The translations under genes and the position numbers were made by a program. Of a stretch of DNA of 64,000 nucleotides, positions 18,273 through 61,928 are shown piece after piece. This DNA comes from an uncultured archaeon (GTDB taxonomy: Archaea; Aenigmatarchaeota; Aenigmatarchaeia; QMZP01; JACQNV01): assembly GCA_964410585.1 (NCBI GenBank), contig CAYPFW010000001.1, positions 68,781-132,780 on the forward strand, written 5' to 3'. The notes under the pieces are model-generated. The model was not told where the DNA came from. It did not search any database and saw only the letters and a list, made by a program, of their open reading frames with translations. Numbering within the stretch: the stretch's first letter is position 1; every line of letters begins with the position of its first letter.

Positions 18273-21200
18273 ATGAGAAAAATACTTTTCCTTCCAGTAT
18301 TTTTGCTAATTATCAGTTTTATTGCTCTTCCTAGCCAATCGCAGACAACTTTTAGGATAATGAACGTTAGCTTTTTGTTTGGTGATCCCTATACCGGCGA
18401 CCCATCAACAGGTGTTGATCCAACAAATTTTATAGGTGAGTGTGGTGGTGATTTACCCAAAGTCTGTACAGATCTTGGTTTTACTCTTCCTGAAGGTCCT
18501 GGAAAACAATCTGGTCTAGGTGTCGACAGGACACTTTGTACAAAGTCAGATGGCACTCAAAGTTATCAATACAGTTGCGATATATCTGGAATCAACTCAG
18601 ATAAATTCATCGATAAGATAGATCCGATTAGCAGGGTTCTCACATACAAAAGTGACCAACTCAAAGGTCCGATCCAATACATTCTCCATGATATTCTAAG
18701 CACAGGTTTCCCAAACAATTTAGATCCTTTTGTTTTCACAAAATCTATTCCTCCATTATATTCAACTGTTCAAGTGTTGGCAGAGCCAAATGGTTTAGTA
18801 GTGATAAAACCAGAAGAGGCAGTCAGAAAATACGACAATACAATTGCTTGGAATGATTCTTGCGTTGGCGATCTCAGCGAGCAATTTACAAATGATTTTT
18901 ACAGAATGGACAAGCAGACAGCAGCAAAAAATGGTTTTGAAATAGTTGAAAATTCCTGCACAGGTTTAGTTGGACAAAAACTAAAATATCATGTGCAAGT
19001 TCACCAACGCGGTTTTAACTACGAGAAGCAAAACGTAGAATGCAAACAAGGTGGCTCGCACTACAATCAGTTTTATGCATCAACTGGTCCAGAGCCAATT
19101 CCTTTTCCATACATTGCTATGTGTGAACCAGATTCGGGATACAGACCCTTGCTTTCAAGAGATTATGAACAAACAGGCCAATGGGGTTGGCCAACTTATT
19201 TCCCTCAAAGGCCTCGGCCAGGATCAACATACAGCGCCACAAACCAGTATTCCTTCTGCGAGGCCTTTGACATGGAGTATGAAGATGTCCATGATTCGGC
19301 CGGAAACTTAGTGAGCTACATATTTGGCGCAAGCGATTCTCCAAGATGTTTCCTTTGGCCAGGACCAGGAGACTCTGTAAGCATAAAACAACTTTCAAAA
19401 ATCCTTGTTTGGAATTTCCCATATATTTTCAATCCAGGTAGCTGCGGGGTTTTCGATTCTCTGAGACAGCGACAACAAGGTGGTGGTAAAGCAGGCTTCA
19501 ATGATCCTGCTTCATACAGAAGAGATGCAGCAGACATCATGTGCAAGAAGCCAATTTTGTTCAATAACCCAGATTATGAAGATGCTGAAAGGAGTGGTTC
19601 ATATATTTTCGAGCCAAGCAAAACAAAAACAGATCCCGGTGTCCAATTTTTGAACAATACAGTCAGGCCTTTTTTCGAACAAACAGATCGGTTGAACCAG
19701 GAATATTTTTCTGGCCCAAGCAAATATAGGAAAATTCAGTTCCATCTACCTGTTTTAACTTCAATTGAAGTCACAGATCTTCAAGGAAACATCTTAGCTC
19801 CAAAGCAACAACAGCTCCAAAACACAACAGTGACTTTGTATGGTGTTGAGGTTGGCCAAAAAATAAAAATAAAAGCTAAAGTAAAAGAATTAGACAGTCA
19901 CAATACATCTATCTTTGTTTTCCAGTCAACAAACTTTGGATGGGGAATGTTTGGACCAACGCAAGGCGGACAAGTCCCTATTTTTGGATGCGATTTCATT
20001 GACTCTTCAACATGTTTGCAAGGTGATGTGAATTTCAACAATGTAACCTTGACAGGCCCTCTCCACCAAAACCTAGGAGGCGTAACACAAGAAAAAGAAA
20101 TAGAATTTGTCTATGAAATTCCTTTAACATATCGTGCACCTCTTGTTGGAACAACATCTCTAAATCCAGGTGATCCATATCCTCTGTTTATTGGTTTTGC
20201 AGATGAGTTTAGCAATTTCGATTCTGTAAAAATCCTTTTCGAAATAGTTCCACCAATTTGTGCAAACCAAAAACACGATGCATCTTCAGGTGAAACAGAT
20301 TTGGACTGTGGTGGCCAAACTTGCCCTACTTGCTTAGATGGCCAAAGATGCAACCTAGATTCAGACTGCCAATCTGGCTGGTGCTACTCAGGATCAAATC
20401 TTCCGCCAAAACCACAACCAACATACGGCGACGGCATTTGCCGCACACCAACATGTTCTGATGGAATTCAGAATCAGGGTGAAACAGCTGTAGATTGTGG
20501 CGGTACAAACTGTGCACCTTGTGGTGGTTGTCAAGAAAATTGGATAACCTCGCCTTGGTCTGCATGCAAAGGCGGACAGCAAACACGAATTGTCAGAGAT
20601 ACAAATAGCTGCAATAACCCAACACCTGTGAACCCGCGTCCAGCAACACAAAGGTCTTGTGTTAACTTAGCTGCATGTGTGCCAACACCAAACCAGTGCG
20701 GTGGTTCAAATGGTTGTCAAATCCTTCCTTATTTGAACGGAGTATCTTGTGGATCAAACCAGGCAGGTGTCTGTTTTGCTGGAAGCTGCTATTTGCCAAC
20801 AACTAAAAAACAACCGCCTGTGGGCCAGTGTTTGCAAACAGACTGGTCACCATGCGAAAAACACAGTATCAATAATAAAGTAGGTTTCTACCAAATCAGA
20901 AATGTAGTTAAAGGAAATCTCAATGTTGCATGCACCCAGCTTCCACCAGATCAAAGGCCAGGCGCTGTAAGATCATGTTCGCCTCAGGCAGGTCCTGGTC
21001 CAAGAGATTTGTGTCAACAGTCTTTGATAGCCTCAGGTTTTGACACACGTTTATCAACTGATTTCACATCTCTAGCAAACTTAAACAGTGTTGAAGGATT
21101 CAAAATAGGGAACCAATTCGGTCAAATTGAGTTTTTAGGAAAATCTGACTTGTCTTCAATAGATTGTTCAAAACTAAATAATGTATTCAAAATAGAAAGA

Positions 21201-21578
21201 AACAAAGTTTTCGTTGATACAAAAACCTATCCAACATTTAACCAACAGGCTGTAGTTAGCTTGTTCACAAAAGACATCAAAGACCCAATTGTAAAAACAT
21301 GGGACAACCAGTGCATACAAGTCCAGGTTATACGATGGAATCCAGACACAGGTCTTCTAACTTTCAAGGCGCCGAAGTTTAGTGGTTATCAAGCAGTTGA
21401 AAAAGCAACAAGCGGTTGCACACCGCAAACGCCGCTAGCTTTATTACTGATGCTGATCTTAATACCAATAGGTGCAGTTGGTTTTTTGTTGTTTTACATG
21501 TACTACAGAAACAAAAAACTGCTGGGGCATGAGTTCCTATGGGAGAAGTACGTACAAAGCAAAGGAGACGCTAAATGA
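18273..21578 (+). CDS. large Cys-rich cell-surface protein (1101 aa) with signal peptide and C-terminal TM anchor
   Basis: N-terminal hydrophobic leader; repeated DCGG-x2-C-x2-C modules (DLDCGGQTCPTC, VDCGGTNCAPCGG); C-terminal LALLLMLILIPIGAVGFLLFYMYY followed by basic tail. Confidence 0.8.
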   Translation: MRKILFLPVFLLIISFIALPSQSQTTFRIMNVSFLFGDPYTGDPSTGVDPTNFIGECGGDLPKVCTDLGFTLPEGPGKQSGLGVDRTLCTKSDGTQSYQYSCDISGINSDKFIDKIDPISRVLTYKSDQLKGPIQYILHDILSTGFPNNLDPFVFTKSIPPLYSTVQVLAEPNGLVVIKPEEAVRKYDNTIAWNDSCVGDLSEQFTNDFYRMDKQTAAKNGFEIVENSCTGLVGQKLKYHVQVHQRGFNYEKQNVECKQGGSHYNQFYASTGPEPIPFPYIAMCEPDSGYRPLLSRDYEQTGQWGWPTYFPQRPRPGSTYSATNQYSFCEAFDMEYEDVHDSAGNLVSYIFGASDSPRCFLWPGPGDSVSIKQLSKILVWNFPYIFNPGSCGVFDSLRQRQQGGGKAGFNDPASYRRDAADIMCKKPILFNNPDYEDAERSGSYIFEPSKTKTDPGVQFLNNTVRPFFEQTDRLNQEYFSGPSKYRKIQFHLPVLTSIEVTDLQGNILAPKQQQLQNTTVTLYGVEVGQKIKIKAKVKELDSHNTSIFVFQSTNFGWGMFGPTQGGQVPIFGCDFIDSSTCLQGDVNFNNVTLTGPLHQNLGGVTQEKEIEFVYEIPLTYRAPLVGTTSLNPGDPYPLFIGFADEFSNFDSVKILFEIVPPICANQKHDASSGETDLDCGGQTCPTCLDGQRCNLDSDCQSGWCYSGSNLPPKPQPTYGDGICRTPTCSDGIQNQGETAVDCGGTNCAPCGGCQENWITSPWSACKGGQQTRIVRDTNSCNNPTPVNPRPATQRSCVNLAACVPTPNQCGGSNGCQILPYLNGVSCGSNQAGVCFAGSCYLPTTKKQPPVGQCLQTDWSPCEKHSINNKVGFYQIRNVVKGNLNVACTQLPPDQRPGAVRSCSPQAGPGPRDLCQQSLIASGFDTRLSTDFTSLANLNSVEGFKIGNQFGQIEFLGKSDLSSIDCSKLNNVFKIERNKVFVDTKTYPTFNQQAVVSLFTKDIKDPIVKTWDNQCIQVQVIRWNPDTGLLTFKAPKFSGYQAVEKATSGCTPQTPLALLLMLILIPIGAVGFLLFYMYYRNKKLLGHEFLWEKYVQSKGDAK

Positions 21579-24095: not shown

Positions 24096-24632
24096 ATGAT
24101 ATCAAAATCAGCCAAACTTGTTTTTGTTCTTCTATTAGTTTCAGTTGTTTTAATTTCTGGCTGCACAGAACAGTCTGTGGCAAATGGCTCAAGTCCATCT
24201 GATTCAGTCAATTCAAATCAGCTAACAGAATGCCCTCAAGGACAGGTAAAAACAGATTCAGGCTGTATGCCTGAAAACAAAGAAGAAACGCCTAATACAA
24301 TTCCAGATGAATCTTCAAAACCAGCAAATAACGAGCCTACCGAGCAATCACAAACTATCAAAGAATTTTCAATGACAGCCAAGCAATGGTCTTTTGACCC
24401 TGAAACAATTACAGTCAAGAAAGGAGATCATGTCAAACTAACAATAAAAAGCATAGATGTAACACACGGATTTGCTATCCCTGATTTTGGAGTGAGCGAA
24501 AACTTGGAGCCGAATAAAGAAATAGTTGTAGAATTTGATGCAGATAAGACAGGCACATTCACATTTTTCTGTTCTGTGTTCTGTGGTTCTGGTCATGCAT
24601 CGATGAAAGGCACACTTGTTGTTGAAGAATAG
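24096..24632 (+). CDS. CuA-type cupredoxin lipoprotein (cytochrome oxidase subunit II-like domain)
   Basis: Start set to the internal ATG (ORF-track frame +210) to avoid overlap with mre11; lipobox LISGC; DVTHGFAIPDFG and FFCSVFCGSGHASM (H...C-x3-C-x3-H-x2-M) CuA ligand pattern. Confidence 0.7.
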   Translation: MISKSAKLVFVLLLVSVVLISGCTEQSVANGSSPSDSVNSNQLTECPQGQVKTDSGCMPENKEETPNTIPDESSKPANNEPTEQSQTIKEFSMTAKQWSFDPETITVKKGDHVKLTIKSIDVTHGFAIPDFGVSENLEPNKEIVVEFDADKTGTFTFFCSVFCGSGHASMKGTLVVEE

Positions 24633-24745
24633 TTCAAATGCTAAACTGTTATTTCTGCATACAAAACTCTTTTAAACTACTTATGTATATAATATACATT
24701 CAAATTTCAATATCCAGTATAGAAATTGTAGTTTAATCTAAAAAT

Positions 24746-25456
24746 ATGAGCGACGAAAAACCAAACTCTGAATCTGGGGAGCAGAAAGCTCAGTCATCTG
24801 AAGATGAAAAGCTGACAAAGCACGAGCTCAGAGAATTGAGAAGGAAAGAGTCTAAGGAAGAAAGAGAAAAGCAGAATTCTGAGTCGCAAAAATTCTCAAT
24901 TGGTAAATACAGCAAATATCTAAAATATGTTGCAGTGTTTATTGTTGTTTTTGCCATAGTTTATGTTTGGTCTACTTCTTCTCCACAAGGACCAATGCCT
25001 TCAATAGGTCCTGTTGGATCAACACATATACATGCTGATTTAGGCCTGTTTTTAGATGGAAAAGAAATCACACCACTTCCAGAAAAATATTTTGTCAGAA
25101 TTAGCGAAGTTCACATGGAAGGGGGTCCTGGAGTAGGTACAGTAATGCACATGCACTCAACTGGTGTGCCTTTGAAAATGTTTTTCAATAGTTTAGGAAT
25201 GAGTTTTGATTCAAAGTGTTTCCAATTTGAGGGCCAAAGATACTGTTCAGATGAAACAAAGAACCTAAAAATGCTTGTTAAACATGAGGGTGGCCAGTGG
25301 GAACAAAACACAGATTTCGAGAGCTATGTTTTCAAAGACTTAGACAAAATTTTGATCACATATGGAAATGAAACACCAGAACAAATAGCCGAACAACAGA
25401 AACAAGTCACAGATGCTTCAAGGCTAAACTCAGAAAGAAAAATGACGGGATTTTAG
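24746..25456 (+). CDS. membrane-anchored protein with His-rich motifs (possible metal binding)
   Basis: Acidic/Ser-rich N-terminus, single TM, THIHADL and HMEGG...VMHMH motifs. Confidence 0.5.
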   Translation: MSDEKPNSESGEQKAQSSEDEKLTKHELRELRRKESKEEREKQNSESQKFSIGKYSKYLKYVAVFIVVFAIVYVWSTSSPQGPMPSIGPVGSTHIHADLGLFLDGKEITPLPEKYFVRISEVHMEGGPGVGTVMHMHSTGVPLKMFFNSLGMSFDSKCFQFEGQRYCSDETKNLKMLVKHEGGQWEQNTDFESYVFKDLDKILITYGNETPEQIAEQQKQVTDASRLNSERKMTGF

Positions 25457-25555
25457 TTCTTGTTTTTCGCGTGTAGTGTATTAGGTCACTTGAAAAGTAT
25501 ATAACTTATTCTGTGCTAATTCTAAGTATAATCTGTATTTTAGAGTGAGGCATAA

Positions 25556-26332
25556 ATGAAAGATCCATTTAAAAAATATCCAGTGAAAACATACGTCCTT
25601 ATAGCAGTTCTAATAATGTCAATCCCGGGGATCCTACAGTTTGGATACCAAAACACAGTTCCCCAAATGGTTTTGGCAGTCCTTGTGGCTGCTGGTTTAG
25701 ATCTCCTAGTTAACAAACTGAAAAAAGGCCCGACATATTTTGTCCCAACTTCCGGAATAATTTCAGGTTTAATTGTCTCAACAATACTTGCTCCTGGCTC
25801 TGTTTGGTATGTCCCTGTGGCTGGTGCAGCAATTGCAATCTTGTCCAAACATGTTTTCAAAGTTAAGCTAAACAATTTCTGGAACCATGTTTTTAACCCA
25901 GCAAACTTCGCGCTGCTTGTATTGGTTGGTTTTGGAATAGGAAAAGATGCTTGGTGGATTGGTACAAATTCTATTCTTGTTGCTATCCTCGGTTTGTTCA
26001 TCTTATGGAGGCTTAGGAAAATTTCAATAGTTGTCCCATTCTTTTTGTTTTTCCTCCTTTCAACTTCAATTACATCAGTCTTCATCCAAAGGCAACTGAC
26101 AACTGACATACTTTTAGCAGAAGCAACAGGAGGCTCCACACTATTCTTCATGTTCATCATGCTCCAAGAACCAATGACAACACCAAGGAAAAAATATGGT
26201 AGGATAGTTTTTGGTTCAGTTGTTGGTGTTTTGGTTCCACTTCTTTTGGCTTTCCCTGCTACTGGTTTTATCAGCATATATTTTGCCTTGGCTATAGGAA
26301 ACATTCTCGTGCCAATTTTAAATAGAGTATGA
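25556..26332 (+). CDS. NqrB/RnfD-family-like integral membrane protein (258 aa)
   Basis: Polytopic; SKHVFKVKLNNFWNHVFNPANFALLVL resembles the RnfD/NqrB conserved FNPA segment. Confidence 0.55.
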   Translation: MKDPFKKYPVKTYVLIAVLIMSIPGILQFGYQNTVPQMVLAVLVAAGLDLLVNKLKKGPTYFVPTSGIISGLIVSTILAPGSVWYVPVAGAAIAILSKHVFKVKLNNFWNHVFNPANFALLVLVGFGIGKDAWWIGTNSILVAILGLFILWRLRKISIVVPFFLFFLLSTSITSVFIQRQLTTDILLAEATGGSTLFFMFIMLQEPMTTPRKKYGRIVFGSVVGVLVPLLLAFPATGFISIYFALAIGNILVPILNRV

Positions 26333-26473
26333 ACCAAACAACTTTAATCGGTCTGATAGCCCTTATCGGCTTTTTAGTTATCCTAGGTTTAGTCATCTAC
26401 AAAACAGACCAAAAAATGAAGGAGTATTTGTTGCAGCATCCCGAGAAGGCAGGTTCAAATATAAATACTTCAC

Positions 26474-29400
26474 TTGATAAATAATGTTATGCTTCAATGT
26501 TTTCTGCAGAAGAAAATAGTTTTTTCATTCTTATTTACAATTATTGTAGTTTCTTCAGTTCTTATTGTTAGAGCTGATGCACAGGGAACGTATACATATT
26601 ATGGCATAACTTTCCAAGAACCGTTGGGCTGGGAAAAGACATTTCCTTTTATAGGAACATTTATTGGTGGGGAAATTTCGCATTCTCAAGAGGTTATGTA
26701 TGAGAAGGATGGTGCTATTATATTTGTTACAAATGGTGGAAATGTACTGCTTTTAGATAAAAGCCCTAGAACATTATCTATAGGCAAAATTGAAGGTTTA
26801 AAGTTTGTATATAGTGATCCAGAGGAAAAAATTGAAGCGGAAGGTTTTGTATTTGATTATAAAGAAAAAGAATATTTTATAACAATTATAAGTAGTACAG
26901 GTATAAAAGAAGCCGATAGAACTGTTTGGAAATCTCTAATAGAAAGCATTAATTTTGGGGATGTTGGTTTATCGCTGCTTTTAGCAGAAGATAGTATAGA
27001 AACCAAAAATGCTATACAATTTTCTCCAGAGATCGACACAGACACAAATAATGAATTTATTCAAAATCTTCAAAAAGACATAAAAACTGTGACAATTGGC
27101 GGTGCCAAAGGAAAATCAAATTTTGATGCTAATTTAGAAAGAACACTTAATCTTGAGAAACTAAATGCCCGTGTATTTGAGAACGGTAAACCCATAGAAT
27201 TTGATGAAAAGGGTGAGCGCAAGGATGTACCTGGTTTGGAAAGAAGCAAAAATGCCAAAGGCCTGGCTCTTGATGTGGTAAAATCAATATATAATAGCCC
27301 TAATTCGGCCCTTAGTTATATTTCCTGGGCCTTTACTAGTTCTGATATTTACAAGATTGGTGAAAAAAATGAAAGAGTTACAAAATTCCTTCAAGAATTA
27401 GACGCAATTGAAGCAGATACACAATTAGAAACAATAAAACAGGTTCATAATCTTGTGGGTAAATATGTTCCTGGATATCTCCCACAGGAAGATAAAGAAG
27501 ATATAGCTACAAATAGTATAGGCGCCGCTATTAAGGATGGAAAAGGAATTTGTCGTGAACAAGCAGCCTTGCTCAAATGGGCATTGGATAAAAAATTAGG
27601 AGGAAAAGCTAATTATAATGCAGAGGTAGTAGGTCAGGACACTACTCATGTTTGGGTTCGTGTAACATTTGATGGTGGACAATTTGATTTAGATACAACC
27701 TGGTTCAAAACTTTTTTCCCACTTGTCCCAAGAGACACTGATAATTGGATGAAATTGTTTTTTTATACAGATGGTTATCTATTTCCATCACGTAACAATG
27801 AAGCAAAATCAATAGATTCAGTCACAGTCAAAGAAGGAGAAATTGAAGAGCAAACAGTCGATCAAGAGACAACAATAGACCAACAAGAAACAAAAAGCGA
27901 CTTTGTACGTACACAATCTCCAATTGACTCATTTTTCAAATTTATTAGTGGTTTATTCACCAGTTTGCTTGGTGGATCACCAACTACACAAACCCAAACA
28001 TCTGAGCCAACAATGAAAGAACCTGGTGATAGTACAGGAATATTTTCTTTCCTTACAGATTGGTTTAAATCAAGACCTCCACAAACAGCTCCTCATGATG
28101 AACAAGGTGATAAGAAAGCGGATTTGGAGAATAAAGATGATAAGAAATCATCAGATAAAGTGATTAAATCTTATTTCACATCAACTTGCCCTAATCCGAC
28201 AACAGATCAAGTAGCCAATGAAGCAGACTACGCAGAAGGTTTCTCTACACCTAAAATACTTGATTTACTTAGAATTTCTGATGATGCCAAAATAGCTTCT
28301 GACTCTACACTTGAAATAGATACATCTTCTTCAACAACTACATTTAGCCTTGCTTCTGGAAGTAGTCTTGTGAATATAAAGAAAATAGATGTGACTGTAG
28401 ATGGAATTAATGTAGATTTGGCTGATATAAGACTTACAGACAAAAGCGGAAAGCTTTTAGGTTCATCAAAACTAGATTCTAGTGGTAAAACAACAATTTC
28501 AACTGACTTCACAATTGGCTCTGATTCTACTAGTAGCAAAATTGATGTGATAGTGGACACAGTTGAGGACTCTACAAGTACGCCTACTGTAACTCTGACA
28601 GGGAAAACATCCACAGATTCCACAATAAAGGGTACGGCAGTCGAAAGCCTTGTACAATACAAAATTAAAGCCGATAATGAAGATGTTTCAGTAAAAGATA
28701 TAACTGTATCCACAGATTCTTCTACTACTCTTGACATTTCCAATATAATACTTATAGATAAGGATGGAAATAGTATAGGATCCTCGGTACCAGATTCTTC
28801 TGATCAAACACCAATTTCAACAACCCTCAACATACCATCTGGTACAGAAGAATTAATAAAAGTAAAGGTTGTTTACAAACAATCAGAATCATCTTCGGCA
28901 CCAGTAGAACCAATGCAAGTCCAGGGTACGTGGAATATTTATAATCTTCCTAATTGGGATGTTATATCAACCACGACACAAAATAGTCAACAGTCAGCTT
29001 CCCTAAGTTCATCCGCAGAAGGCAATCACTTCCACATAAGCTTTGGAAATAACAAATACCCACCGGGCTACTTTGTATTCTATAAGGATGGTGGTGAGAT
29101 TCTAGTTTACGATGCAAATGATCCAACATTGTTTTGCAAACAACAAACTAGAAGCGGGGATAATTGTGGTGATACATCAACTGATACAAATGGTGTCTCG
29201 GGGGATGGATGGTTATATTGGGCTTCTAAAGACGGAAAGCAGGTTAGTAATTCATTAAAGGTTGGAACCCCTGGAAAAAGCCCTCCTTCTCTGATTACAA
29301 TTTCAGCCCAAATAGGCCTGATAACTGCAAAACAAATTTTCAAATTTAAACAATCTCAATCTGGCAGCGAATATACATATCAACTAGAAAGTTTATCTAA

Positions 29401-30895
29401 TTTACCTCTTGTGACTCAGGCACCAAACCCATCAACCGGCTTATCAACAATGTATCTTAATCCTGTAAGAGCAGTATCTCAAGGCGAACAAAGTCCAACT
29501 CTCGCTCCGCTAAGTCTTGGTATATTGAATCTTGATGGAAGCCAGTTTTTCACAGCAACATATGATGATTCATCTAAATCTTTTGTTTTAACAAACAAAC
29601 TAACAGGCCAAACAACAAGCTCTACTAGTCTTAGTGCTTCTGGAAATTGGAGAGTTGGAACAATACAAGTAGGTGGTGCCAGCTATTCTGTAATGGTTTA
29701 TCCATCATCGAGTGCATTCACAATTTTGACACAAAATCCCCAAAACAATATTAATTTGGCTGATGGTTATGTATTGTCTTTTGCCAACACATTTGTAACA
29801 GATCCAGCTACACCAATCACAGCAGAATTGAAAAATAGTGGTGGTACAGTTGTCGCAACAGTGAAATTCTTCATGGGATCAACACCAAGAGTAACAATTA
29901 CACCAACTCCTGGATATTCTTCATCAAATCCATATACTGGGGCAGTTAGTGTATCTTCTGTAACATTGGGTACACCCCAATCAACAACTACAACAACTGG
30001 TCCAACTACATCTGCTGGATTTTCTTTATCCATTGATACTGGGGAACAGCCAACAGAAGCAGAAGAAAATTTAGTTGACAATCTTGCAGATCTTTCCAAA
30101 GCAGCAGAAATGGGCAGGCTTTTGAAAATTTCCTCAAAATCTGATTTAGCTGAAAAATTGAGAACAGTTTGTGGAGATCCTCCTATTGGTGGTTTAACAG
30201 CAGCTATAGTTGGTTCAAATGAAAACAAATGGGCAGGCTGGGCTGTATATGATCCAGAAAAAATGTCTCAGTTTATATTGAACTCTAAAAAAGAATCTTC
30301 TGGTTTGGTTGGTAACTTGATTTCAAAAACACCAATTTCAGGATTTTTGACTGGGATGCAGATAGATTGGTCAACAAATCAAAAACCAAAAGACGATGTT
30401 GGATATTATAGTTGCGGGCATCCTAACAAAGCCACTCAAGACTCAACAAAGCCATGCACTATGGTGCGCAGAGGAGCGTTTTTATCTAATGCATACTCTG
30501 GTGATTCTTGCTCACCCCCTGAAAATGGTGTATGTGTAGGGAACGGTGAACCTATTGAAGCAGACGAAAGACCTCAAGGAAAATTTAAATACTATCAAAG
30601 CTGCAGTTGTGTACCAAAAGATCAGGCTCAGTGCCCTCTAGTACCTTTTATTGATTTAGAAGAAGGTAATTTGAATATAAATAGGGATTCGGATAACGAT
30701 GGCTTAAAGGATTTTGAAGAACGTATTTTCAATACTAACCCAAATGATCCAACTGATCCTATAGAAAACCCAAACAGAAATTTGGCCTTTATAATTTTGG
30801 TTGACGACGAAAACTTCGATGAAGTAAAAGAGTGTTTGATGGCATCCCTAGCACCTGGCGGAACAGTAGGTAGTGGTGGAACTGCCGTTGGTTAA
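26474..30895 (+). CDS. giant Ser/Thr-rich surface protein (1473 aa) with transglutaminase-like core and conserved C-terminal tail
   Basis: Signal peptide; GKGICREQAALLKW ... DTTHVWVRV ... DLDTTW gives a Cys-His-Asp arrangement; long S/T-rich repeats; DSDNDGLKD acidic motif; ends APGGTVGSGGTAVG. Confidence 0.8.
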   Translation: MINNVMLQCFLQKKIVFSFLFTIIVVSSVLIVRADAQGTYTYYGITFQEPLGWEKTFPFIGTFIGGEISHSQEVMYEKDGAIIFVTNGGNVLLLDKSPRTLSIGKIEGLKFVYSDPEEKIEAEGFVFDYKEKEYFITIISSTGIKEADRTVWKSLIESINFGDVGLSLLLAEDSIETKNAIQFSPEIDTDTNNEFIQNLQKDIKTVTIGGAKGKSNFDANLERTLNLEKLNARVFENGKPIEFDEKGERKDVPGLERSKNAKGLALDVVKSIYNSPNSALSYISWAFTSSDIYKIGEKNERVTKFLQELDAIEADTQLETIKQVHNLVGKYVPGYLPQEDKEDIATNSIGAAIKDGKGICREQAALLKWALDKKLGGKANYNAEVVGQDTTHVWVRVTFDGGQFDLDTTWFKTFFPLVPRDTDNWMKLFFYTDGYLFPSRNNEAKSIDSVTVKEGEIEEQTVDQETTIDQQETKSDFVRTQSPIDSFFKFISGLFTSLLGGSPTTQTQTSEPTMKEPGDSTGIFSFLTDWFKSRPPQTAPHDEQGDKKADLENKDDKKSSDKVIKSYFTSTCPNPTTDQVANEADYAEGFSTPKILDLLRISDDAKIASDSTLEIDTSSSTTTFSLASGSSLVNIKKIDVTVDGINVDLADIRLTDKSGKLLGSSKLDSSGKTTISTDFTIGSDSTSSKIDVIVDTVEDSTSTPTVTLTGKTSTDSTIKGTAVESLVQYKIKADNEDVSVKDITVSTDSSTTLDISNIILIDKDGNSIGSSVPDSSDQTPISTTLNIPSGTEELIKVKVVYKQSESSSAPVEPMQVQGTWNIYNLPNWDVISTTTQNSQQSASLSSSAEGNHFHISFGNNKYPPGYFVFYKDGGEILVYDANDPTLFCKQQTRSGDNCGDTSTDTNGVSGDGWLYWASKDGKQVSNSLKVGTPGKSPPSLITISAQIGLITAKQIFKFKQSQSGSEYTYQLESLSNLPLVTQAPNPSTGLSTMYLNPVRAVSQGEQSPTLAPLSLGILNLDGSQFFTATYDDSSKSFVLTNKLTGQTTSSTSLSASGNWRVGTIQVGGASYSVMVYPSSSAFTILTQNPQNNINLADGYVLSFANTFVTDPATPITAELKNSGGTVVATVKFFMGSTPRVTITPTPGYSSSNPYTGAVSVSSVTLGTPQSTTTTTGPTTSAGFSLSIDTGEQPTEAEENLVDNLADLSKAAEMGRLLKISSKSDLAEKLRTVCGDPPIGGLTAAIVGSNENKWAGWAVYDPEKMSQFILNSKKESSGLVGNLISKTPISGFLTGMQIDWSTNQKPKDDVGYYSCGHPNKATQDSTKPCTMVRRGAFLSNAYSGDSCSPPENGVCVGNGEPIEADERPQGKFKYYQSCSCVPKDQAQCPLVPFIDLEEGNLNINRDSDNDGLKDFEERIFNTNPNDPTDPIENPNRNLAFIILVDDENFDEVKECLMASLAPGGTVGSGGTAVG

Positions 30896-30924
30896 TATAT
30901 ATTCTAGTTTAAACAAATTATAGT

Positions 30925-31575
30925 ATGATCACCAAAAAATATCTCCCAATAATAATTCTTGTCATGGGAATAGTTTTAGTCTCAGGTTGCTCTCAACCCC
31001 CAACTAATCAAACAACAGATCAACCACAAAACACAGCTGAACCTCTAACACAACCTTCTGATGAATCGAATCCAGTAGATGAGAATCCTCCTGAAATAAC
31101 TCAACCAGAAATCAAAGAAGAACCAAAGGTTGAGCCGAAAAAAGTTGTTCCAAAGGGACATTTTGATTTTGTCAATGGAGATACATGGGAGCCAACTGCT
31201 TTTGCTTTTGGAGTCAAACTTCATCTAATAGTTGCAGGCGATGGGAAAAATTTCAATGTCCCTAAATTTTTGCCTATAAATGTCAGAATACTTCTTAGAA
31301 ATGCGATTGTCTGGTCTTATTTAATTCAAGGATCTGCTGAACAAACGTGCAGGGATGAAACAGGATGCAGCCCAGAAAACGGTGAAACTTTTGAGGCAAC
31401 AGATGATTGGAAAGTAGGTTCTTTGAAATTTATAGCAACAGACGAAGAGGGTAATCTTTTAGCATACGAAGAATATCAAGACGGAGAGTTTGTAACCAAT
31501 GGAGAAGAGGGTGTTGAGGTTGCTTCAACTGCACCGGGTGGAACTATTGGGGGAAGTGGAACAGGAGTAGGGTAG
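30925..31575 (+). CDS. Pro-rich lipoprotein sharing the C-terminal domain of the upstream giant protein
   Basis: Lipobox LVSGC; CSPENG motif; ends APGGTIGGSGTGVG. Confidence 0.65.
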   Translation: MITKKYLPIIILVMGIVLVSGCSQPPTNQTTDQPQNTAEPLTQPSDESNPVDENPPEITQPEIKEEPKVEPKKVVPKGHFDFVNGDTWEPTAFAFGVKLHLIVAGDGKNFNVPKFLPINVRILLRNAIVWSYLIQGSAEQTCRDETGCSPENGETFEATDDWKVGSLKFIATDEEGNLLAYEEYQDGEFVTNGEEGVEVASTAPGGTIGGSGTGVG

Positions 31576-37244: not shown

Positions 37245-37323
37245 GGAAGCCGTAATTTTTTCGAGCTTGCAGGCGAAGAAAAAATAGGCTCCGTTTTTGA
37301 TTAACCTTTTGGACTAAAAGGTT
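37245..37323 (+). promoter_or_regulatory. conserved leader element, copy A (upstream of spt4)
   Basis: GGAAGCCGTAATTTTTTCGAGC...GCGAAGAAAAAATAGGCTCCGTTTTTGATTAACCTTTTGGACTAAAAGGTT then ATG; carries compensatory changes relative to copies B-E. Confidence 0.6.
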
Positions 37324-37591: not shown

Positions 37592-37673
37592 GGAAGGCGT
37601 TTAAAATTTTTTCGAACAGCAGTGAGAAAAAATTTAGCCTCCTGTTTTGGTTAAGCTTTTAGGATAAAAGGTT
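37592..37673 (+). promoter_or_regulatory. conserved leader element, copy B (upstream of rps24e)
   Basis: GGAAGGCGTTTAAAATTTTTTCGAAC...AGAAAAAATTTAGCCTCCTGTTTTGGTTAAGCTTTTAGGATAAAAGGTT then ATG. Confidence 0.6.
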
Positions 37674-38600: not shown

Positions 38601-38650
38601 GCTAGCCTTTTCTTTTCAAAAAGAAAGGTCTACCGTATCCAAAAGAAAAC
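38601..38650 (+). terminator. conserved 3' hairpin element, copy 2 (inside tRNA locus)
   Basis: GCTAGCC-TTTTCTTTTC-AAAAAGAAAGG-TCTACCGTATCCAAAAGAAAAC. Confidence 0.4.
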
Positions 38651-38663
38651 GATTTACAAACAT

Positions 38664-38745
38664 GGAAGGCGTAAAAATTTTCGAGTTGAGACGAAGAAAA
38701 TTTTAGCCTCCTTTTTGGATTAACCCTTTTCTCAAAAAGGGTTAT
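38664..38745 (+). promoter_or_regulatory. conserved leader element, copy C (upstream of the tRNA 3' segment)
   Basis: GGAAGGCGTAAAAATTTTCGAG...GAAGAAAATTTTAGCCTCCTTTTTGGATTAACCCTTTTCTCAAAAAGGGTTAT. Confidence 0.55.
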
Positions 38746-44102: not shown

Positions 44103-44149
44103 CTAGCCTTTCTTTTCAGAAAAGAAAGTCTACCGTACCCAAAGAAAAC
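44101..44149 (+). terminator. conserved 3' hairpin element, copy 4 (after rps19)
   Basis: AGCTAGCC-TTTCTTTT-caga-AAAGAAAG-TCTACCGTACCCAAAGAAAAC; overlaps the rps19 stop codon. Confidence 0.45.
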
Positions 44150-49196: not shown

Positions 49197-49244
49197 CCAG
49201 CTAGCCTTCTTTTAGAAAAAGAAGGCTACCGTACCCAAGAAAAC
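49197..49244 (+). terminator. conserved 3' hairpin element, copy 5 (after DUF59 gene)
   Basis: AGCTAGCCTTCTTTT-aga-AAAAGAAGGCTA-CCGTACCCAAGAAAAC; followed by TTTATAAATA TATA-like box before rps17. Confidence 0.45.
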
Positions 49245-49716: not shown

Positions 49717-49798
49717 GGAAGGCGTAAAATTTTTCCGAGCAACAGCGAAGAAAAATTTAGCCTCCTGTTTTGCTTAAGCTTTTGGGACAAAAGCTTAT
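49717..49798 (+). promoter_or_regulatory. conserved leader element, copy D (upstream of rpl14)
   Basis: GGAAGGCGTAAAATTTTTCCGAGC...GCGAAGAAAAATTTAGCCTCCTGTTTTGCTTAAGCTTTTGGGACAAAAGCTTAT then ATG. Confidence 0.6.
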
Positions 49799-52083: not shown

Positions 52084-52161
52084 GGAAGGCGTAATTTTTT
52101 GCAAGCAACAGCGAAGCAAAAAATAGCCTCCGTTTTTGCTTAAGCTTTTGACTAAAAGCTT
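52084..52161 (+). promoter_or_regulatory. conserved leader element, copy E (upstream of rps14)
   Basis: GGAAGGCGTAATTTTTTGCAAGC...GCGAAGCAAAAAATAGCCTCCGTTTTTGCTTAAGCTTTTGACTAAAAGCTT then ATG. Confidence 0.6.
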
Positions 52162-53664: not shown

Positions 53665-56172
53665 ATGGTATTTATAGGTTCTGATAGAGATGTTGACCTA
53701 TACATGCGAGAGGCAAGATCAATACCTCTTCTAACAAAAGAACAGGAGTACAATTTAGCTTGTGTATATAGAGGCGTTGGACCTCTTATAGGATCTAGCA
53801 TTTACCAAAACAAAAATCATCCATTCAGTACCTATAGAAATGGAAAAGCTTATTCTGAAATGTCACCTACAGAAGCAGCTGATTTGATGAGTAGGGGAAA
53901 TAGAAGACTTGTTATTAGTATAGCAAAAAGATATAGAAACCGAGGTTTGGATTTCCTCGATCTTCTTGCAGAAGGTGAAGTTGGCCTTGTTAAAGCTGTG
54001 CAAAAATACGAGCCTCAAAAAGGATTCAAGTTTTCAACATATGCAACTTGGTGGATAAAACAATCGGTAAAAAGAGCACTTGAAAAAACGCGGCAAATTC
54101 ATATACCGATTCATATTTTTGAAATTCTTCCACGTTTTAATGAAGTATATAGAACTCTCCAAAGCGAGTTACAGAGGCCTCCTAGCACAGAAGAGATTGC
54201 ACAAAAAATGGGCTTGAAACCCTCCCAGGTTATTTTGATACAGGATGCAAAGGTAACCAAATCTAGAAAACTTTTAAGTCTAGATAGAATGAAGGGCGAT
54301 GATGAAGATGAAAGCATGTATAAAAGTATAGAGGACAGAACAGCAGATAGACCAGATGATCAAATGAGTCAATTAGACTCGGCAGTTCTGCTCAATACAC
54401 TAATGGACCGCCTAACAGTAAGAGAAAGATATGTTATAGAAAGCCGAAAAGGATTGAACGGAAAAAGTCAAAAAACACTTGAGGAACTTGGATTGGAATT
54501 AGATGTGACAAGGGAAAGAGTAAGACAAATAGAAATCAAGTCAATGGAGAAGCTTAAACAGGCAGCTAAAAGTATTCGTGCTACTAGTGTCATCAAAAGT
54601 AATATTGAAAGCGATAAACAGGTAGCTCAACAAAGCAAAAGACTGAATCGCCCAAATTATCCAGCAGAGAGAACAGAAGTATCTGATTCAAGCTCCTATT
54701 CTGTCTCAGAAATACATGGAATGTGGGGATTTGGATCACATAGTGCAACATCAAGACACATAAGATTAAGCGCTGCAAGAAAGGTGGGTTGGGGAAGATA
54801 CTCAAAAGAAGACATAGATAAGTACACTGCAAGCTTTGGTCTTTTTGGTGAAGAACCGGTTATTAAACAGCAATCTATTTTAGATGAAACAATACCAGTT
54901 GAAGAAAGGGATTGGCTTACATTTGCTGAAATAAAAGAACTGTTTGGCTATCCAAACGCAGAGTCAAACTACAGACACATAAGATTGAGTGGCTCAAGAA
55001 AAGTAGATCACGACAAATACACAAAAGCAGAAATCCTTGCGTACATAGATTGGCACATGAAAGACCTTCTAAATATGCCATTGAAACACGCTGAAACAAT
55101 GACAGATGTGAGACAAGGAATAACTATAGATGAAGTACTTTCTGACCCTCAAATAGCTGATCTTTCTTTTAAAGATATTAGGAAAATTTCAGGGAAATCT
55201 GAAGCAGCTGTATACAATGCAATTAAAGCCAATAATATCCAAAATACAGCAAGAGGCAGATATCCAAAAGAAATTCTTGCAACAATAAGAGAGAGAGATG
55301 AAAGAAGAGTGAAAACCCACACACTACATGACGGCACAAATCACAAAGCAAGAATAGTTTTCGAAAACACAGAAACAGATGACACAACTCCACATGAAAG
55401 AGCAAAAGTGAATAGAAGATCTTATTCTGCGTCAGACGTTTCTAATCTTTTAGATATATCAGTACATGAAGTTCGCCCATTTTCTGTCGCTGTAGGCATA
55501 TCAATATCTGGGCACAGCAAATATTCTAAAAAAGATGTAGATGAATACCTAGCCAAAAGGGAAGAAATACTTGCAATCCCAATGAGAGAAAGAGATGTTT
55601 TGGATATATCTGAAATTTGTGATATGTTTGGTTTTGATACATGGCGATCCACACAAAACCACCTTTATGCAAGCAGGTCTCAGAGGCTCGGAGTTGGCTT
55701 GTTTTCCAAAAGAGAAATTTTAGAATATATAGACATGCACATGCAAGACCTTTTGAACATGCCATTTGTAAAAGCAATGTCACCGGAGACAAAAACTCCT
55801 GAAACGGTTCAACAAATAGAAAGGAAACCTTACAAAAGCCCAGGAATAGAATTAGAATTTAATCCAGGAGAAAATGTACTTCTTCCTAGTTCTGTTAGAG
55901 AATTAACTGGGAGAGATCCTAGCCAACTTCTTAAATATTTGAGATCCCGTGGATTAAGATCAAGAGAATTTAGAATAGGTTGTGTTGCTGAATATTTGGA
56001 TTATATGAGAAAGAAAAAAGAAGTAAAGGAAGAAGCCAAAGACAAATTTTATGGCGGACTTAAAGAGCTTGTCCAAAGGGAAGGCAGAAGACCAGAAAGG
56101 AAGCTTGTAATAAATGTGCAAATAAAAGTTCAGGACATTCACCAAAATTCTGTTGTCGAAGAAGCAGTCTAA
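53665..56172 (+). CDS. sigma-70-family sigma factor domain fused to six tandem HTH-like repeats (835 aa)
   Basis: Region 1.2 [18 protein letters not shown]; region 2 [53 protein letters not shown]; region 4.2 [28 protein letters not shown]; then repeats such as [43 protein letters not shown]. Confidence 0.8.
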
Positions 56173-56619: not shown

Positions 56620-57423
56620 ATGAGAAGAGGAATACGGCTTAGGGCCTATTTGATGCTGACAGGAGAATTCAAAAAATCTTTTGATGTGATTAGGCTAGTA
56701 GAGTCTGGAAAAATTTTGGTTAATGGAAAGATTGTCACAAACCCAGAATTCCACATAAACAAAAAAGATTTAATCGAGATGAAAGACGGTCAAGGTTTGA
56801 AAACATTTAAAACAAAATCTTTTGTTTACCTTATTTTGAACAAGCCTACAGGATATGTATCCCAAAAACTACCCCTTTCTTTAGAAAAGAAAGGTGTAAG
56901 GTATCCCAAAGAAACTAATATAGAAAATAATAATGAAAAGTCTGTGTACGAATTGATCTACAAAATACCTGAGCTAGATATTGAGACAAAAAAAACTTTA
57001 TTTGCTGTTGGTCGTTTAGACAAAGACACAGAAGGCCTGCTAATTTTCACAAATGATGGAAAATTATCCAATGAATTGATGAGGCCAGAAAAACACATAC
57101 AAAAAACTTATTTTGTTGAAACCCAAAAATCAATTTCTGAATTAGATTTGAAAAAATTGGAGTCTGGAGTAAAAATAAGAACAGAAGAAGGAGAAGCTTT
57201 TGTCAAGGCAGTCAAAACACAAAAATTTTCAGATAGAACAGCTGAATTGATTATAGACGAGGGAAAGAAAAGACAAGTGAAGCTCATGTTTTTGTCGATT
57301 GGAAACAATGTTGTTCGTTTGAAAAGAGTTGGTATTGGAAAACTAAGAATAGAAAACCTAGATTTCAAAGGAAAAAATTATTTGATAACCAACAAACAGG
57401 AGTTGGAAAAATTACTATTCTAG
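56620..57423 (+). CDS. RsuA/RluB-family pseudouridine synthase with S4 domain
   Basis: Catalytic motif GRLDKDTEGLLIFTNDG; S4-like N-terminus. Confidence 0.8.
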   Translation: MRRGIRLRAYLMLTGEFKKSFDVIRLVESGKILVNGKIVTNPEFHINKKDLIEMKDGQGLKTFKTKSFVYLILNKPTGYVSQKLPLSLEKKGVRYPKETNIENNNEKSVYELIYKIPELDIETKKTLFAVGRLDKDTEGLLIFTNDGKLSNELMRPEKHIQKTYFVETQKSISELDLKKLESGVKIRTEEGEAFVKAVKTQKFSDRTAELIIDEGKKRQVKLMFLSIGNNVVRLKRVGIGKLRIENLDFKGKNYLITNKQELEKLLF

Positions 57424-59364: not shown

Positions 59365-60339
59365 TTAACCCTTAACATTCCCAACGGGAACCAACTTGAC
59401 AACTTTTTGAGAAATATCTTCATCAAGTCTATTTTTCTTTGATTCTATATATTTATCGAGAGCTACCTTTTTGATAAACCAGTTCCTTCCTATCTTGTGT
59501 GCTTCTATTTTTCCCTTTCTTGCAAGCAGGCTAAGATATTCTTGTGAATATGGTGTGCCTTTTGATGCTTGCTCCAGGCTTATAAATTCCGGTCCCTTTT
59601 TGAAAGCATCCAAATAAAAGTCTAGGCTTCTTTCCACATTGCGAGCAATAAAATTTGCAAATGGTTTAATGTCTCCTGAATCTGCTTTTCTAAGTTTGTC
59701 ATAGTATTTATTCCTATCAACTTTTAGTACCATCGTTATTGGATATCCATGTTTCATCAAAAAGAGGTTCATGATCAATCTTGATGTTCTCCCATTACCA
59801 TCTGTGAATGGGTGTATTTCAACTAGTTTATAGTGTATAATTGCCGCGAGTTCTATAACATTCAAATTTTCTGGGTTGTTAGAGACATATTCTATAAACT
59901 CTTTCATTTTGTCAGGGACTTTTTCAAACCTTGGCGGACTTTTTACAGCTCCCAAAATTCTTACATTTACATCTCTGTATCTGCCTGCATATTCATCATC
60001 AATACCTGTCAAAATTATCTTGTGAACTCCCTTTATTGTATCCTCTGTTATTTGAGATGTTTTGTTTACAATGTCTTCCAAAAATTCAAAAGCTTTTTGG
60101 TGGTTTATAGCCTCAAAGTGTTCCCTTAAAGGTTTTCCTTTTATTGTAATGCCTTCCTCTATAACAAGTTTTGTTTCTCTTAATGTAAGCGTGTTGCCCT
60201 CTATAGCATTTGAATTGTATGCCAATTCTATTGCAAACTGTTTTCTCAAATTCTCCAATGCAGATTTCGGCAATGGTCTTAGCGCGTCCAATTCCTTCTT
60301 CTTTTTAACTATTCTTTGGTATAATTCTTGATCTATCAT
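59365..60339 (-). CDS. fic: Fic/DOC-family protein with C-terminal winged-helix domain
   Basis: Fic motif HPFTDGNGRTSR; last 16 codons copy the rtcB C-terminus. Confidence 0.8.
   Translation of the reverse strand: MIDQELYQRIVKKKKELDALRPLPKSALENLRKQFAIELAYNSNAIEGNTLTLRETKLVIEEGITIKGKPLREHFEAINHQKAFEFLEDIVNKTSQITEDTIKGVHKIILTGIDDEYAGRYRDVNVRILGAVKSPPRFEKVPDKMKEFIEYVSNNPENLNVIELAAIIHYKLVEIHPFTDGNGRTSRLIMNLFLMKHGYPITMVLKVDRNKYYDKLRKADSGDIKPFANFIARNVERSLDFYLDAFKKGPEFISLEQASKGTPYSQEYLSLLARKGKIEAHKIGRNWFIKKVALDKYIESKKNRLDEDISQKVVKLVPVGNVKG
59368..59415. repeat. 48-bp direct repeat, copy 1 (3' end of fic)
   Basis: ACCCTTAACATTCCCAACGGGAACCAACTTGACAACTTTTTGAGAAAT; 45/48 identical to copy 2. Confidence 0.85.
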
Positions 60340-60443: not shown

Positions 60444-61928
60444 CTAACCCTTAACATTCCCAATTGGAACCAACTTGACAACTTTCTGAGAAATGCCAGC
60501 GTTGTGTGCTGATTCGATGACTTCGTCAATATCCTTGTACGCGCCACCAGCTTCTTCAGCTAAACCAGAGAACGAAACCGTTTTAACTAGAATTCCTCTC
60601 TTCTCCATATCTTTTTGTAGTTGCTCGCCTCTCCACTGCCTTTTCGCTGCGTTTCTTGACATTGTCCTTCCAGAACCGTGGCATGTTGATCCAAAAGTCT
60701 CTTCTTCTGCTTTTTTTGTGCCGACCAAGAGATATGAGCCAGTTTCCATTGAGCCACCGATGATCACAGGTTGTCCATCATCCCTGTAAATTTTAGGAAC
60801 CTCCTCCCTTCCAGGACCAAGGCTTCTGGTTGCGCCTTTTCTATGTACGATGACTTTTTTCTTTTTTCCATCAACTACATATTCTTCAATTTTAGCGGTA
60901 TTGTGCGCCACATCATACACTTGTTTCATTCCTAAACTTTCCGGTGACTGTTTGAAAACATCTGAGAATACCTCTCTGATTCTGTGCAAAATAACTTGCC
61001 TATTTGCAAAGCTCATGTTTATTCCAGTTTGCATTGCTTTGAAATAATCTTGTCCTTCAGGTGATTGGAAAGGAGCACAAGCAAGCTCCCTGTCCAAAAT
61101 TTTTATTTTGTATTTAGATTCCATCACAGACAAAAATTTGGTCAAATAATCTGTTGCAACTTGGTGGCCATATCCTCTTGAACCACAATGGAACATCAAA
61201 ACAATTTGATCTGGGAAAATCCCCCATTTTTTTGCAAGTTCTTTGTTGATTATGTTTTCTGGCAGAACTCTTTGGATTTCTAAATAGTGGTTTCCAGAAC
61301 CTAAAGTTCCTATCTGATCTTTACCTCTTTGGATAGCTTTGTCAGAAACTTTGGAAACATCTGCTGCTTTCATCCTTCCATTTTCTTCTGTCCTTTCCAA
61401 ATCCTCTTCCCAACCATATCCTTGCTTCACACACCACTCTGCACCAAGTTCAACAACTTCTTTGAATTGTTGTGCATTTAGTTTCACAAAACCAGAAGAT
61501 CCAACACCTGCAGGAACTCTATCGTATAGTTTATTTACTAAGTTTCTTAGTTGAGGTTGGACATCTTTGAAAGTGAGATTTGTCAACACAAGACGCATGC
61601 CGCAGTTAATATCAAACCCTATTCCACCTGGAGAAATCACACCTTCTTCTAAATCAAACGCAGCGACACCGCCAATCGGAAAACCGTATCCCCAGTGTCC
61701 ATCTGGCATACAGTATGCAAATTTCTGAATTCCGGGCAAGTTTGCGACATTGGTTATTTGGTCGTAGACTCCTGGGTCCATTTCGTTGACCAATTTCTTT
61801 GACGCGACAATTCTTGCCGGCACATTCATGCCAGTTTTGTGGGTTTTAGGGATTTCCCAGATGTATGGTGTGATCTGCTTGATTTCTTTTGGCTTCTCTA
61901 TTCTGATCTGAGATCCTTCTTCGTTCAT
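60444..61928 (-). CDS. rtcB: tRNA-splicing ligase RtcB
   Basis: GGSMETGSYLLVGT and GSTCHGSGR motifs, 494 aa, C-terminus KLVPIGNVKG. Confidence 0.9.
   Translation of the reverse strand: MNEEGSQIRIEKPKEIKQITPYIWEIPKTHKTGMNVPARIVASKKLVNEMDPGVYDQITNVANLPGIQKFAYCMPDGHWGYGFPIGGVAAFDLEEGVISPGGIGFDINCGMRLVLTNLTFKDVQPQLRNLVNKLYDRVPAGVGSSGFVKLNAQQFKEVVELGAEWCVKQGYGWEEDLERTEENGRMKAADVSKVSDKAIQRGKDQIGTLGSGNHYLEIQRVLPENIINKELAKKWGIFPDQIVLMFHCGSRGYGHQVATDYLTKFLSVMESKYKIKILDRELACAPFQSPEGQDYFKAMQTGINMSFANRQVILHRIREVFSDVFKQSPESLGMKQVYDVAHNTAKIEEYVVDGKKKKVIVHRKGATRSLGPGREEVPKIYRDDGQPVIIGGSMETGSYLLVGTKKAEEETFGSTCHGSGRTMSRNAAKRQWRGEQLQKDMEKRGILVKTVSFSGLAEEAGGAYKDIDEVIESAHNAGISQKVVKLVPIGNVKG
60447..60494. repeat. 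48-bp direct repeat, copy 2 (3' end of rtcB)
   Basis: ACCCTTAACATTCCCAATTGGAACCAACTTGACAACTTTCTGAGAAAT. Confidence 0.85.

Follow-up and report, generated by a model that had tools for sequence, protein, structure and literature searches.

A glycine-rich C-terminal peptide common to a giant transglutaminase-like surface protein and the adjacent lipoprotein of an archaeon

Within a 64,000-nt stretch of archaeal DNA (positions 1-64000, in the following referred to as the window), two adjacent genes on the forward strand were found to end in the same type of short glycine-rich peptide. The upstream open reading frame, ORF A, encodes a giant exported surface protein with a transglutaminase-like domain, and the downstream frame, ORF B, encodes a small orphan lipoprotein. 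The two C-termini resemble each other far beyond chance, and their codons bear the signature of selection on the encoded peptide. The tail is neither a membrane-spanning signal of the sortase/archaeosortase type nor, in the searched data, a widely used tag. Our tentative reading, held with somewhat less than even confidence, is that it represents a docking or handle peptide common to two co-expressed surface proteins.

Results

Two adjacent genes encode exported proteins with a common C-terminal tail

The features on which the comparison is based are the following (window coordinates, strand, description and basis in parentheses):

26489..30895, + strand: ORF A, giant exported lineage-specific surface protein of 1468 aa (ORF list; identical to database protein P0002)
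26489..26581, + strand: Sec-type signal peptide of ORF A, MLQCFLQKK followed by a hydrophobic core and VRADA/QG (sole hydrophobic segment; A-x-A cleavage motif read from the sequence)
30839..30895, + strand: tail copy 1, end of ORF A, MASLAPGGTVGSGGTAVG plus TAA stop (sequence, alignment, DNA pattern)
30925..31575, + strand: ORF B, orphan lipoprotein of 216 aa (ORF list; sole database match is the protein itself, P0001)
30925..30990, + strand: lipoprotein signal peptide of ORF B, MITKKYLPIIILVMGIVLVSG, then C (lipobox V-S-G-C read from the sequence)
31519..31575, + strand: tail copy 2, end of ORF B, VASTAPGGTIGGSGTGVG plus TAG stop, then a second TAG (sequence, alignment, DNA pattern)

The length of 1473 aa given for ORF A in the first-pass annotation is obtained when translation is started at the TTG at 26474, whereas gene callers choose the ATG at 26489, leading to a protein of 1468 aa; the same gene was called in four independent assemblies. 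Four independent Logan assemblies show the ORF A/ORF B locus with 100% identity, so that it is not an assembly artefact. According to hydropathy analysis, the N-terminal segment of ORF A (aa 7-37, KD19 2.53) is the only hydrophobic segment of this protein. ORF B follows ORF A on the same strand, with 29 nt in between. Database entry P0001 makes use of a later ATG at 30964, resulting in a protein of 203 aa. This start was rejected because it leaves only 8 residues ahead of the lipobox Cys, and 30925 is therefore the better choice. The signal of ORF B then consists of MITKK, a hydrophobic core and LVSG, followed by the lipobox Cys C22, and the sole hydrophobic segment of the protein comprises aa 1-27. 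This arrangement agrees with the definition of the archaeal lipobox, i.e. [LVI]-[ASTVI]-[GAS]-C preceded by an n-region and an h-region (PMC12462473), and lipidation of ORF B is predicted on this basis. Among DPANN archaea, proteins with a lipobox are common (PMC12462473).

ORF A terminates with ...ECLMASLAPGGTVGSGGTAVG and ORF B with ...GVEVASTAPGGTIGGSGTGVG, and in both cases the stop codon directly follows the final Gly. The consensus comprises 18 residues and reads [MV]-A-S-x-A-P-G-G-T-[VI]-G-x-x-G-T-x-V-G-stop. The tail is uncharged, rich in Gly, Thr and Ala, exposes a free C-terminal Gly carboxylate and is probably flexible; an acidic stretch precedes each copy. When the two sequences are anchored at the C-terminus, 12 of the 18 residues are identical (BLOSUM62 score 66). 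In the same manner, all 68 plausible window genes were compared by their last 18 residues, and the resulting 2278 gene pairs yielded a background of -15 +/- 10 with 27 for the best unrelated pair, placing the ORF A/ORF B pair ~8 standard deviations (SD) above. Local alignment of the tails likewise scored 66, as compared to a maximum of 59 in 300 shuffles. Finally, a degenerate DNA pattern encoding the tail and its stop codon (P-G-G-[ST]-hydrophobic-G-x-x-G-[ST]-x-hydrophobic-G-stop) matched exactly two sites in the window, the ends of ORF A and ORF B, with 0 matches expected from 100 shuffles. The shared Gly-rich tail noticed in the first-pass annotation is thus present and conserved. A chance resemblance of two low-complexity, glycine-rich termini, for which the simple composition of the tail and the silence of composition-adjusted BLASTP on this match may speak, is effectively refuted by the shuffles, the pattern count at the ends of two adjacent genes and the anchored comparison, and is extremely improbable.

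Only the tails of ORF A and ORF B are similar, and none of the residues encoded by the preceding 18 codons is identical (0/18). A likeness further upstream, "CSPPENG" in ORF A and "CSPENG" in ORF B, had also been pointed out, but is not significant: p is ~0.02, uncorrected, when the C-terminal regions are compared and ~0.2 for the whole proteins. A deeper homology of the C-terminal region of ORF A with ORF B was rejected on these grounds.

Codon-level divergence points to selection on the tail peptide

The 54 nt encoding the tail differ at 21 sites between ORF A and ORF B, of which 5, 2 and 14 fall on codon positions 1, 2 and 3, respectively. DNA identity is 61-63%, and a repeat finder applied to the window did not report the tails as a DNA repeat. 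Only 4 of the 18 third codon positions are identical, i.e. these positions are saturated, while 29 of the 36 first and second positions agree (binomial p=0.0018). When one tail was mutated at random to the same DNA distance, at least 12 of 18 residues remained identical in 1e-4 of the simulations. Saturation of synonymous sites combined with a preserved peptide therefore argues for selection acting on the tail peptide, and a recent DNA duplication of the tail was rejected for the same reason. As far as two sequences allow, this pattern points to a peptide kept by selection over a long divergence, or kept in two lineages before the copies were joined. Polymorphism between samples was of no use as a measure of constraint on the tail, because all four assemblies are 100% identical.

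The tail is restricted to the two genes in the searched data

Among the ORFs of the window in all frames, only ORF A and ORF B end in the tail. It is absent from the other ~66 window genes, including those for exported or lipobox-containing proteins at 925, 7100, 11423, 18273, 21575 and 24096, and the few kb of additional flanking sequence by which the window could be extended via its edge genes contained no new tails. The strict pattern APGGTxGxxGTxVG-stop had 0 matches in 185,579 species genomes (one genome each) and 0 matches in IMG/VR. This genome collection does not contain the source genome, and the window's own tails were not recovered there. The sole match of the strict pattern in JGI metagenomes (L005) was attributed to chance, as it resides on a contig of high GC (guanine plus cytosine) content in a frame that runs antisense within a gene of 820 aa. 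A loosened pattern yielded 27 genome matches, which is about the number expected by chance. They were rejected as noise, consisting of out-of-frame stretches of 3-158 codons, mostly in high-GC genomes; the longest match of the loosened pattern, a Met-less frame of 518 codons in a genome of 75% GC, is implausible. Viral contigs contained no match to the loosened pattern, and none of the 37 relatives of the transglutaminase core described below ends in the tail. Word-indexed searches using the C-terminal 323 aa of ORF A or a two-sequence profile of the tail gave no matches, but did not recover the queries either and are not counted as absence.

The suggestion that a class of proteins makes use of the peptide as a tag for sorting or anchoring thus found no support, as the tail is seen only in these two adjacent genes in the searched data. 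By these pattern searches, the tail appears as a two-copy, lineage-private peptide and as a curiosity of this locus more than a new sorting signal of general use. The first-pass annotation had named a counter-scenario, in which the motif occurs solely in these two proteins and is explained by recent local duplication: the restriction to two proteins holds in the searched data, whereas recent duplication is not the explanation.

The tail differs from known C-terminal sorting signals

Hydropathy analysis detected no C-terminal transmembrane helix in ORF A or ORF B, the sole hydrophobic segment being N-terminal in each case. An NCBIfam scan at E<=1, which covers the curated models of C-terminal sorting domains, returned no CTERM-type match for either protein. 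Both observations support the earlier view that the two proteins are exported, lack a trailing transmembrane helix and hence are not of the PGF-CTERM type. With the signals recognized by archaeosortase A (PGF-CTERM, and also PEF-, VPXXXP- and IPTL-CTERM) the tail shares its C-terminal position in exported surface proteins of archaea and a Pro-Gly following a low-complexity stretch. However, the motif is A-P-G-G-T in the present case, i.e. PGG rather than Pro-Gly-Phe, and the transmembrane helix and basic cluster that follow the motif in PGF-CTERM proteins are replaced by 10 small or polar residues devoid of Arg and Lys. For the last hydropathy segment, KD19 amounts to 0.86 in ORF A and 0.26 in ORF B. 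A further difference is the number of copies, two only, and no archaeosortase gene is evident among the annotated genes of the window.

Short, Gly-rich, unstructured C-terminal tags without a transmembrane helix are also known as cargo-loading peptides of encapsulins, where they are carried by functionally linked proteins that are often encoded adjacently; these peptides are cytoplasmic and their partner is the shell protein. The tails of ORF A and ORF B have a different consensus and belong to exported proteins. A Gly-Gly motif near the C-terminus of secreted proteins is the hallmark shared with GlyGly-CTERM, the rhombosortase signal, in which GG is followed by a transmembrane helix and an Arg-rich end and which stands in a many-to-one relation to a rhomboid protease in bacteria (PMC3237569). 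The tails possess the GG, but no transmembrane helix, no basic end and no match to the corresponding hidden Markov model (HMM). Judged by sequence comparison, the tail is no member of any known C-terminal sorting system.

ORF A contains a transglutaminase-like core within a protein otherwise lacking relatives

Further features of ORF A are listed below:

27371..27748, + strand: predicted transglutaminase/papain-fold Cys-His-Asp core, aa ~300-425, with C360, H392 and D407 (relatives, alignment, AlphaFold2 model, Foldseek)
28425..28821, + strand: Ser/Thr-rich module of ~106 aa, repeated in tandem within ORF A (direct repeat D5, 72% identity over 79 nt, 318-nt spacing; Ser plus Thr 33-34% in aa 601-800)
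30170..30634, + strand: Cys-rich region, 8 Cys between aa 1233 and 1387 (Cys positions; no relatives found)
30686..30751, + strand: candidate TSP3-type acidic, Ca-binding-like repeat DSDNDGLKD..., aa 1405-1426 (Pfam PF18884 TSP3_bac)

An exhaustive HMMER search of 1.84 billion representative proteins with residues 274-1473 of ORF A (numbered from the TTG start) as query retrieved ORF A itself as the only full-length match. In addition, it yielded 37 relatives with E-values down to 4e-16, all of them confined to ORF A residues ~290-425 and 33-45% identical over ~120 aa. The motifs common to these relatives are G-x-C-R-[DE]-Q-A, H-x-W-V-R-V and D-L-D-P-T-W-Y. In an alignment of 31 sequences (ORF A and 30 relatives), C360, H392 and D407 are invariant and occur in the order Cys-His-Asp. 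A structural model of the core, calculated by AlphaFold2 from the alignment of relatives, reached a predicted local distance difference test (pLDDT) of 83.9 and a predicted template-modelling score (pTM) of 0.81. Best PDB matches in Foldseek were TglA of S. pyogenes (9crn), the transglutaminase 4xz7, arylamine N-acetyltransferases, menin, LapG and a CPR protease. Many of these matches had probabilities of ~1.0; E-values were modest (at least 2e-3) and TM-scores did not exceed 0.53. The relatives, the invariant residues, the confident model and the fold matches agree with the Cys, His and Asp that the first-pass annotation had proposed as a transglutaminase-like core. In a profile search, suggested there as a check, several relatives (E 4e-16 to 1e-9) exceed the cutoff of Pfam family PF01841 Transglut_core with 24.5-31.4 bits, whereas ORF A itself scores weakly (E 0.12, 13.1 bits versus a cutoff of 23). 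Based on the model, assignment of the core to the transglutaminase/papain-like fold is sound, and the domain may act either by cleavage or by cross-linking. ORF A resembles the superfamily of PF01841, which includes bacterial transglutaminase-like cysteine proteinases of the LapG type and S. pyogenes TglA, in the Cys-His-Asp order and the predicted fold, but differs in that its own score stays below the cutoff and its core is embedded in a 1468-aa protein with ~1050 residues lacking relatives.

Most relatives of the core are secreted proteins of 260-450 aa that end just after the core, and ORF A is unusual in its further ~1050 residues. Beyond residue ~425, no relatives of ORF A were found in the HMMER search, and neither ORF A nor ORF B found a match among PDB sequences. 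The part outside the core is composed of Ser/Thr-rich modules, the Cys-rich region and one candidate TSP3-type repeat. The long Ser/Thr-rich regions mentioned in the first-pass annotation were recovered, Ser and Thr accounting for 33-35% of the residues across aa 601-800 and 1101-1200. Its acidic, Ca-binding-like motif DSDNDGLKD is part of a single candidate TSP3-type repeat, whose match to PF18884 TSP3_bac (23.3 bits, E 5.7e-5) falls slightly short of the 25-bit cutoff. Of note, the same divergent transglutaminase-like core is present in two giant proteins rich in helical repeats, P0003 (5324 aa, two copies of the core) and P0038 (1514 aa). This distribution of sequences suggests that the core may recur as a module in very large proteins of lineages that are poorly sampled.

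ORF B, in turn, has no relative among 5.8 billion clusters and matches no Pfam or NCBIfam family. Its single-sequence structure model is poor, with a pLDDT of 52 and values of ~26 for the last 13 residues, and a fold search using this model was dropped as confidence was too low. A long disordered linker is predicted for ORF B with low confidence.

A second gene pair of the window shares a C-terminus

The only other gene pair of the window with a common C-terminus consists of rtcB, encoding a protein of 494 aa (60444-61928, - strand), and the gene downstream, which encodes a Fic/HTH_17 protein of 324 aa (59365-60339, - strand). Both proteins possess the same last 16-17 residues, ISQKVVKLVP[IV]GNVKG. 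At the DNA level, the shared end corresponds to a direct repeat of 50 nt with 94% identity, located at 59366-59415 and 60445-60494. Since the DNA is 94% identical over 50 nt, the duplication is recent. The copied rtcB 3' end now terminates an inserted fic gene. The 104-nt junction between the two genes is made up of two tandem units with TATCGGATA/TATCCGATA palindromes resembling an operator; palindromes of the TATCGGATA type are absent around ORF B.

The rtcB/fic arrangement, an att-type duplication of a 3' end, is similar to that of ORF A and ORF B in that the downstream gene carries the last 17-18 codons and the stop codon of the upstream gene. It differs by its 94% DNA identity, indicative of a recent event, from the 61-63% identity, saturated synonymous sites and conserved peptide of the ORF A/ORF B tails. 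As rtcB/fic shows the same geometry and length, a corresponding origin is suggested for the tail of ORF A and ORF B. That a gene 3' end can be duplicated or captured is thereby demonstrated for this genome, and such an event is, by analogy, a plausible source of this tail.

Host and further features of the window

The window encodes a set of archaeal-only proteins comprising S4e, S24e, Rpb7/RpoE', aIF1/SUI1, RNase P p29, L7Ae/L30e and a KH-only NusA, and its GC content is 33-41%; the contig to which it belongs measures ~600 kb. The host is an archaeon and probably of the DPANN type, which is the best inference. A bacterial host, to which a full set of sigma-70 domains would point, was rejected in view of the archaeal protein set and of sigma-70 genes being known in DPANN archaea, where they have been reported mainly for Woesearchaeota (PMC8204110). 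Such a gene is present in the window at 53665-56172 (+ strand), between archaeal nusA, which it directly follows, and an archease-like gene. The encoded protein is 835 aa long; its first ~300 residues contain the complete sigma-70 set of domains (regions 1.2, 2, 3 and 4) and are followed by a C-terminal extension of ~530 aa.

Immediately upstream of ORF A lies a co-directional gene cluster (24096-26484, + strand) for a cupredoxin lipoprotein, a familyless membrane protein of 236 aa, a short stand-alone RnfD/NqrB-like membrane protein (258 aa) and a 51-aa ORF with a single transmembrane segment, which abuts the start of ORF A. Together with ORF A and ORF B, this cluster may constitute a single extracytoplasmic operon. 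Another exported protein, of 1101 aa (18273-21578, + strand), gave a Pfam match to the Nup98-type S59 autopeptidase domain at aa 935-999 with an E-value of 1.2e-6, just above the cutoff; a domain of this type in an archaeal surface protein is unusual.

Two families of conserved intergenic repeats were detected (strand not stated):

37254-37311, 37604-37661, 38673-38730, 49727-49784 and 52093-52150: 58-nt repeat family
38609-38648, 44109-44148, 49205-49244 and 56875-56914: 40-nt repeat family

In both families, a hairpin-like element (AAATTTTTTCGA...GAAAAAATTT and TTTCTTTTCAGAAAAGAAAG, respectively) is followed by a conserved motif (AGCCTCC...TTAAGCTTTTG and TCTACCGTACCCAAAG, respectively). These repeats are scattered among ribosomal-protein gene clusters, have no Rfam match and may be terminator/promoter modules or small mobile repeats. 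Despite the dense ribosomal-protein operons, ARAGORN detected no tRNA genes in the window (1-64000), and none of the Rfam families reached its gathering threshold.

Discussion

The C-terminal peptide shared by ORF A and ORF B is best explained, in our tentative view, as a docking or handle peptide of two co-expressed surface proteins. ORF A is a giant surface protein without an anchor that is exported via Sec by an archaeon of small genome, probably of the DPANN type; the Cys-His-Asp domain is its sole recognizable enzyme module. ORF B is probably co-transcribed with it. Most likely, the 3' end of one gene was long ago duplicated or captured by the downstream neighbour, after which purifying selection would have kept the peptide in both genes, while the adjoining sequence diverged beyond recognition. 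Through the tail, lipid-anchored ORF B and anchorless ORF A could bind the same extracellular partner or processing enzyme. Alternatively, the tail might mediate association of ORF A with ORF B and thereby tether ORF A to the cell.

Several points weigh against this reading. The docking partner, the receptor and the processing enzyme are hypothetical, and the assignment of the tail as disordered is weak, given the pLDDT of 52 of the single-sequence model of ORF B. Selection is deduced from two sequences and 18 codons of a low-complexity peptide, and the searched databases contain no orthologues by which evolution of the tail could be traced. Moreover, no trace of an insertion or duplication junction is visible at the DNA level around ORF B, and further copies of the tail may exist elsewhere in the source genome.

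The rtcB/fic pair of the same window, with its identical arrangement and a repeat of the same length (17 codons), also lends weight to an explanation of the tails as a by-product of insertion, which we nevertheless regard as unlikely. An ORF B cassette would have integrated at the 3' end of ORF A, one tail being a diverged copy borne by the cassette and the other the displaced original; only the tail of ORF A would be functional and ORF B would merely read into the leftover copy. Saturated synonymous sites and a conserved peptide would also result if the element-borne copy had diverged in another lineage. However, ORF B is not flanked by an integrase, by junction repeats or by motifs resembling an operator, and the 1.84 billion representative proteins contain no homologue of the ORF A C-terminus as a donor. 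In addition, the similarity ends exactly at the stop codon, and the frame and stop codon of ORF B are intact.

It is improbable that the tail represents a new type of C-terminal sorting, anchoring or recognition tag that lacks a transmembrane helix, serves a set of secreted proteins and occurs in more copies elsewhere in the genome. A constrained peptide at the extreme C-terminus of two exported proteins that matches no known model is what such a tag would look like, and the source genome is absent from the scanned genome collection. Yet, the tail is carried by none of the ~66 other window genes, exported proteins included, nor by the extra flanks, has no genuine copy in the 185,579 species genomes or in metagenome or viral contigs, and is missing from all 37 relatives of the transglutaminase core.

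We give equally little credence to the tail being a substrate or recognition site of the papain-fold domain of ORF A itself, used for a release reaction as carried out by LapG or for sortase-like transpeptidation. The intact Cys-His-Asp triad, the structural likeness to TglA and to the adhesin-processing protease LapG, and the fact that the enzyme and both tails are encoded together are consistent with this idea. On the other hand, the 37 core relatives lack the tail, and most are short and end just after the core. The tail offers neither Gln nor Lys for transglutaminase chemistry, and while LapG substrates are cleaved at a di-alanine site, no such LapG-type site exists in the tail. The link between enzyme and tail is one of co-occurrence only. 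Slightly less probable still is the combined scenario of a recognition tag without transmembrane helix, specific to this barely sampled DPANN lineage, that marks a set of exported proteins encoded elsewhere in the genome for cell-surface attachment or processing and is possibly processed in a sortase-like manner by the papain-fold domain of ORF A.

If the tail indeed serves as a docking or processing handle, as we tentatively favour, it would reveal by what means a host-dependent archaeon retains a giant protein devoid of an anchor at its cell surface, and the tail could be used to pull down its partner. As it stands, the main value of the ORF A/ORF B pair is that of a clean example of a short peptide that appears to have been kept by selection after duplication of a gene 3' end, with rtcB/fic as a recent counterpart of such a duplication in the same window.

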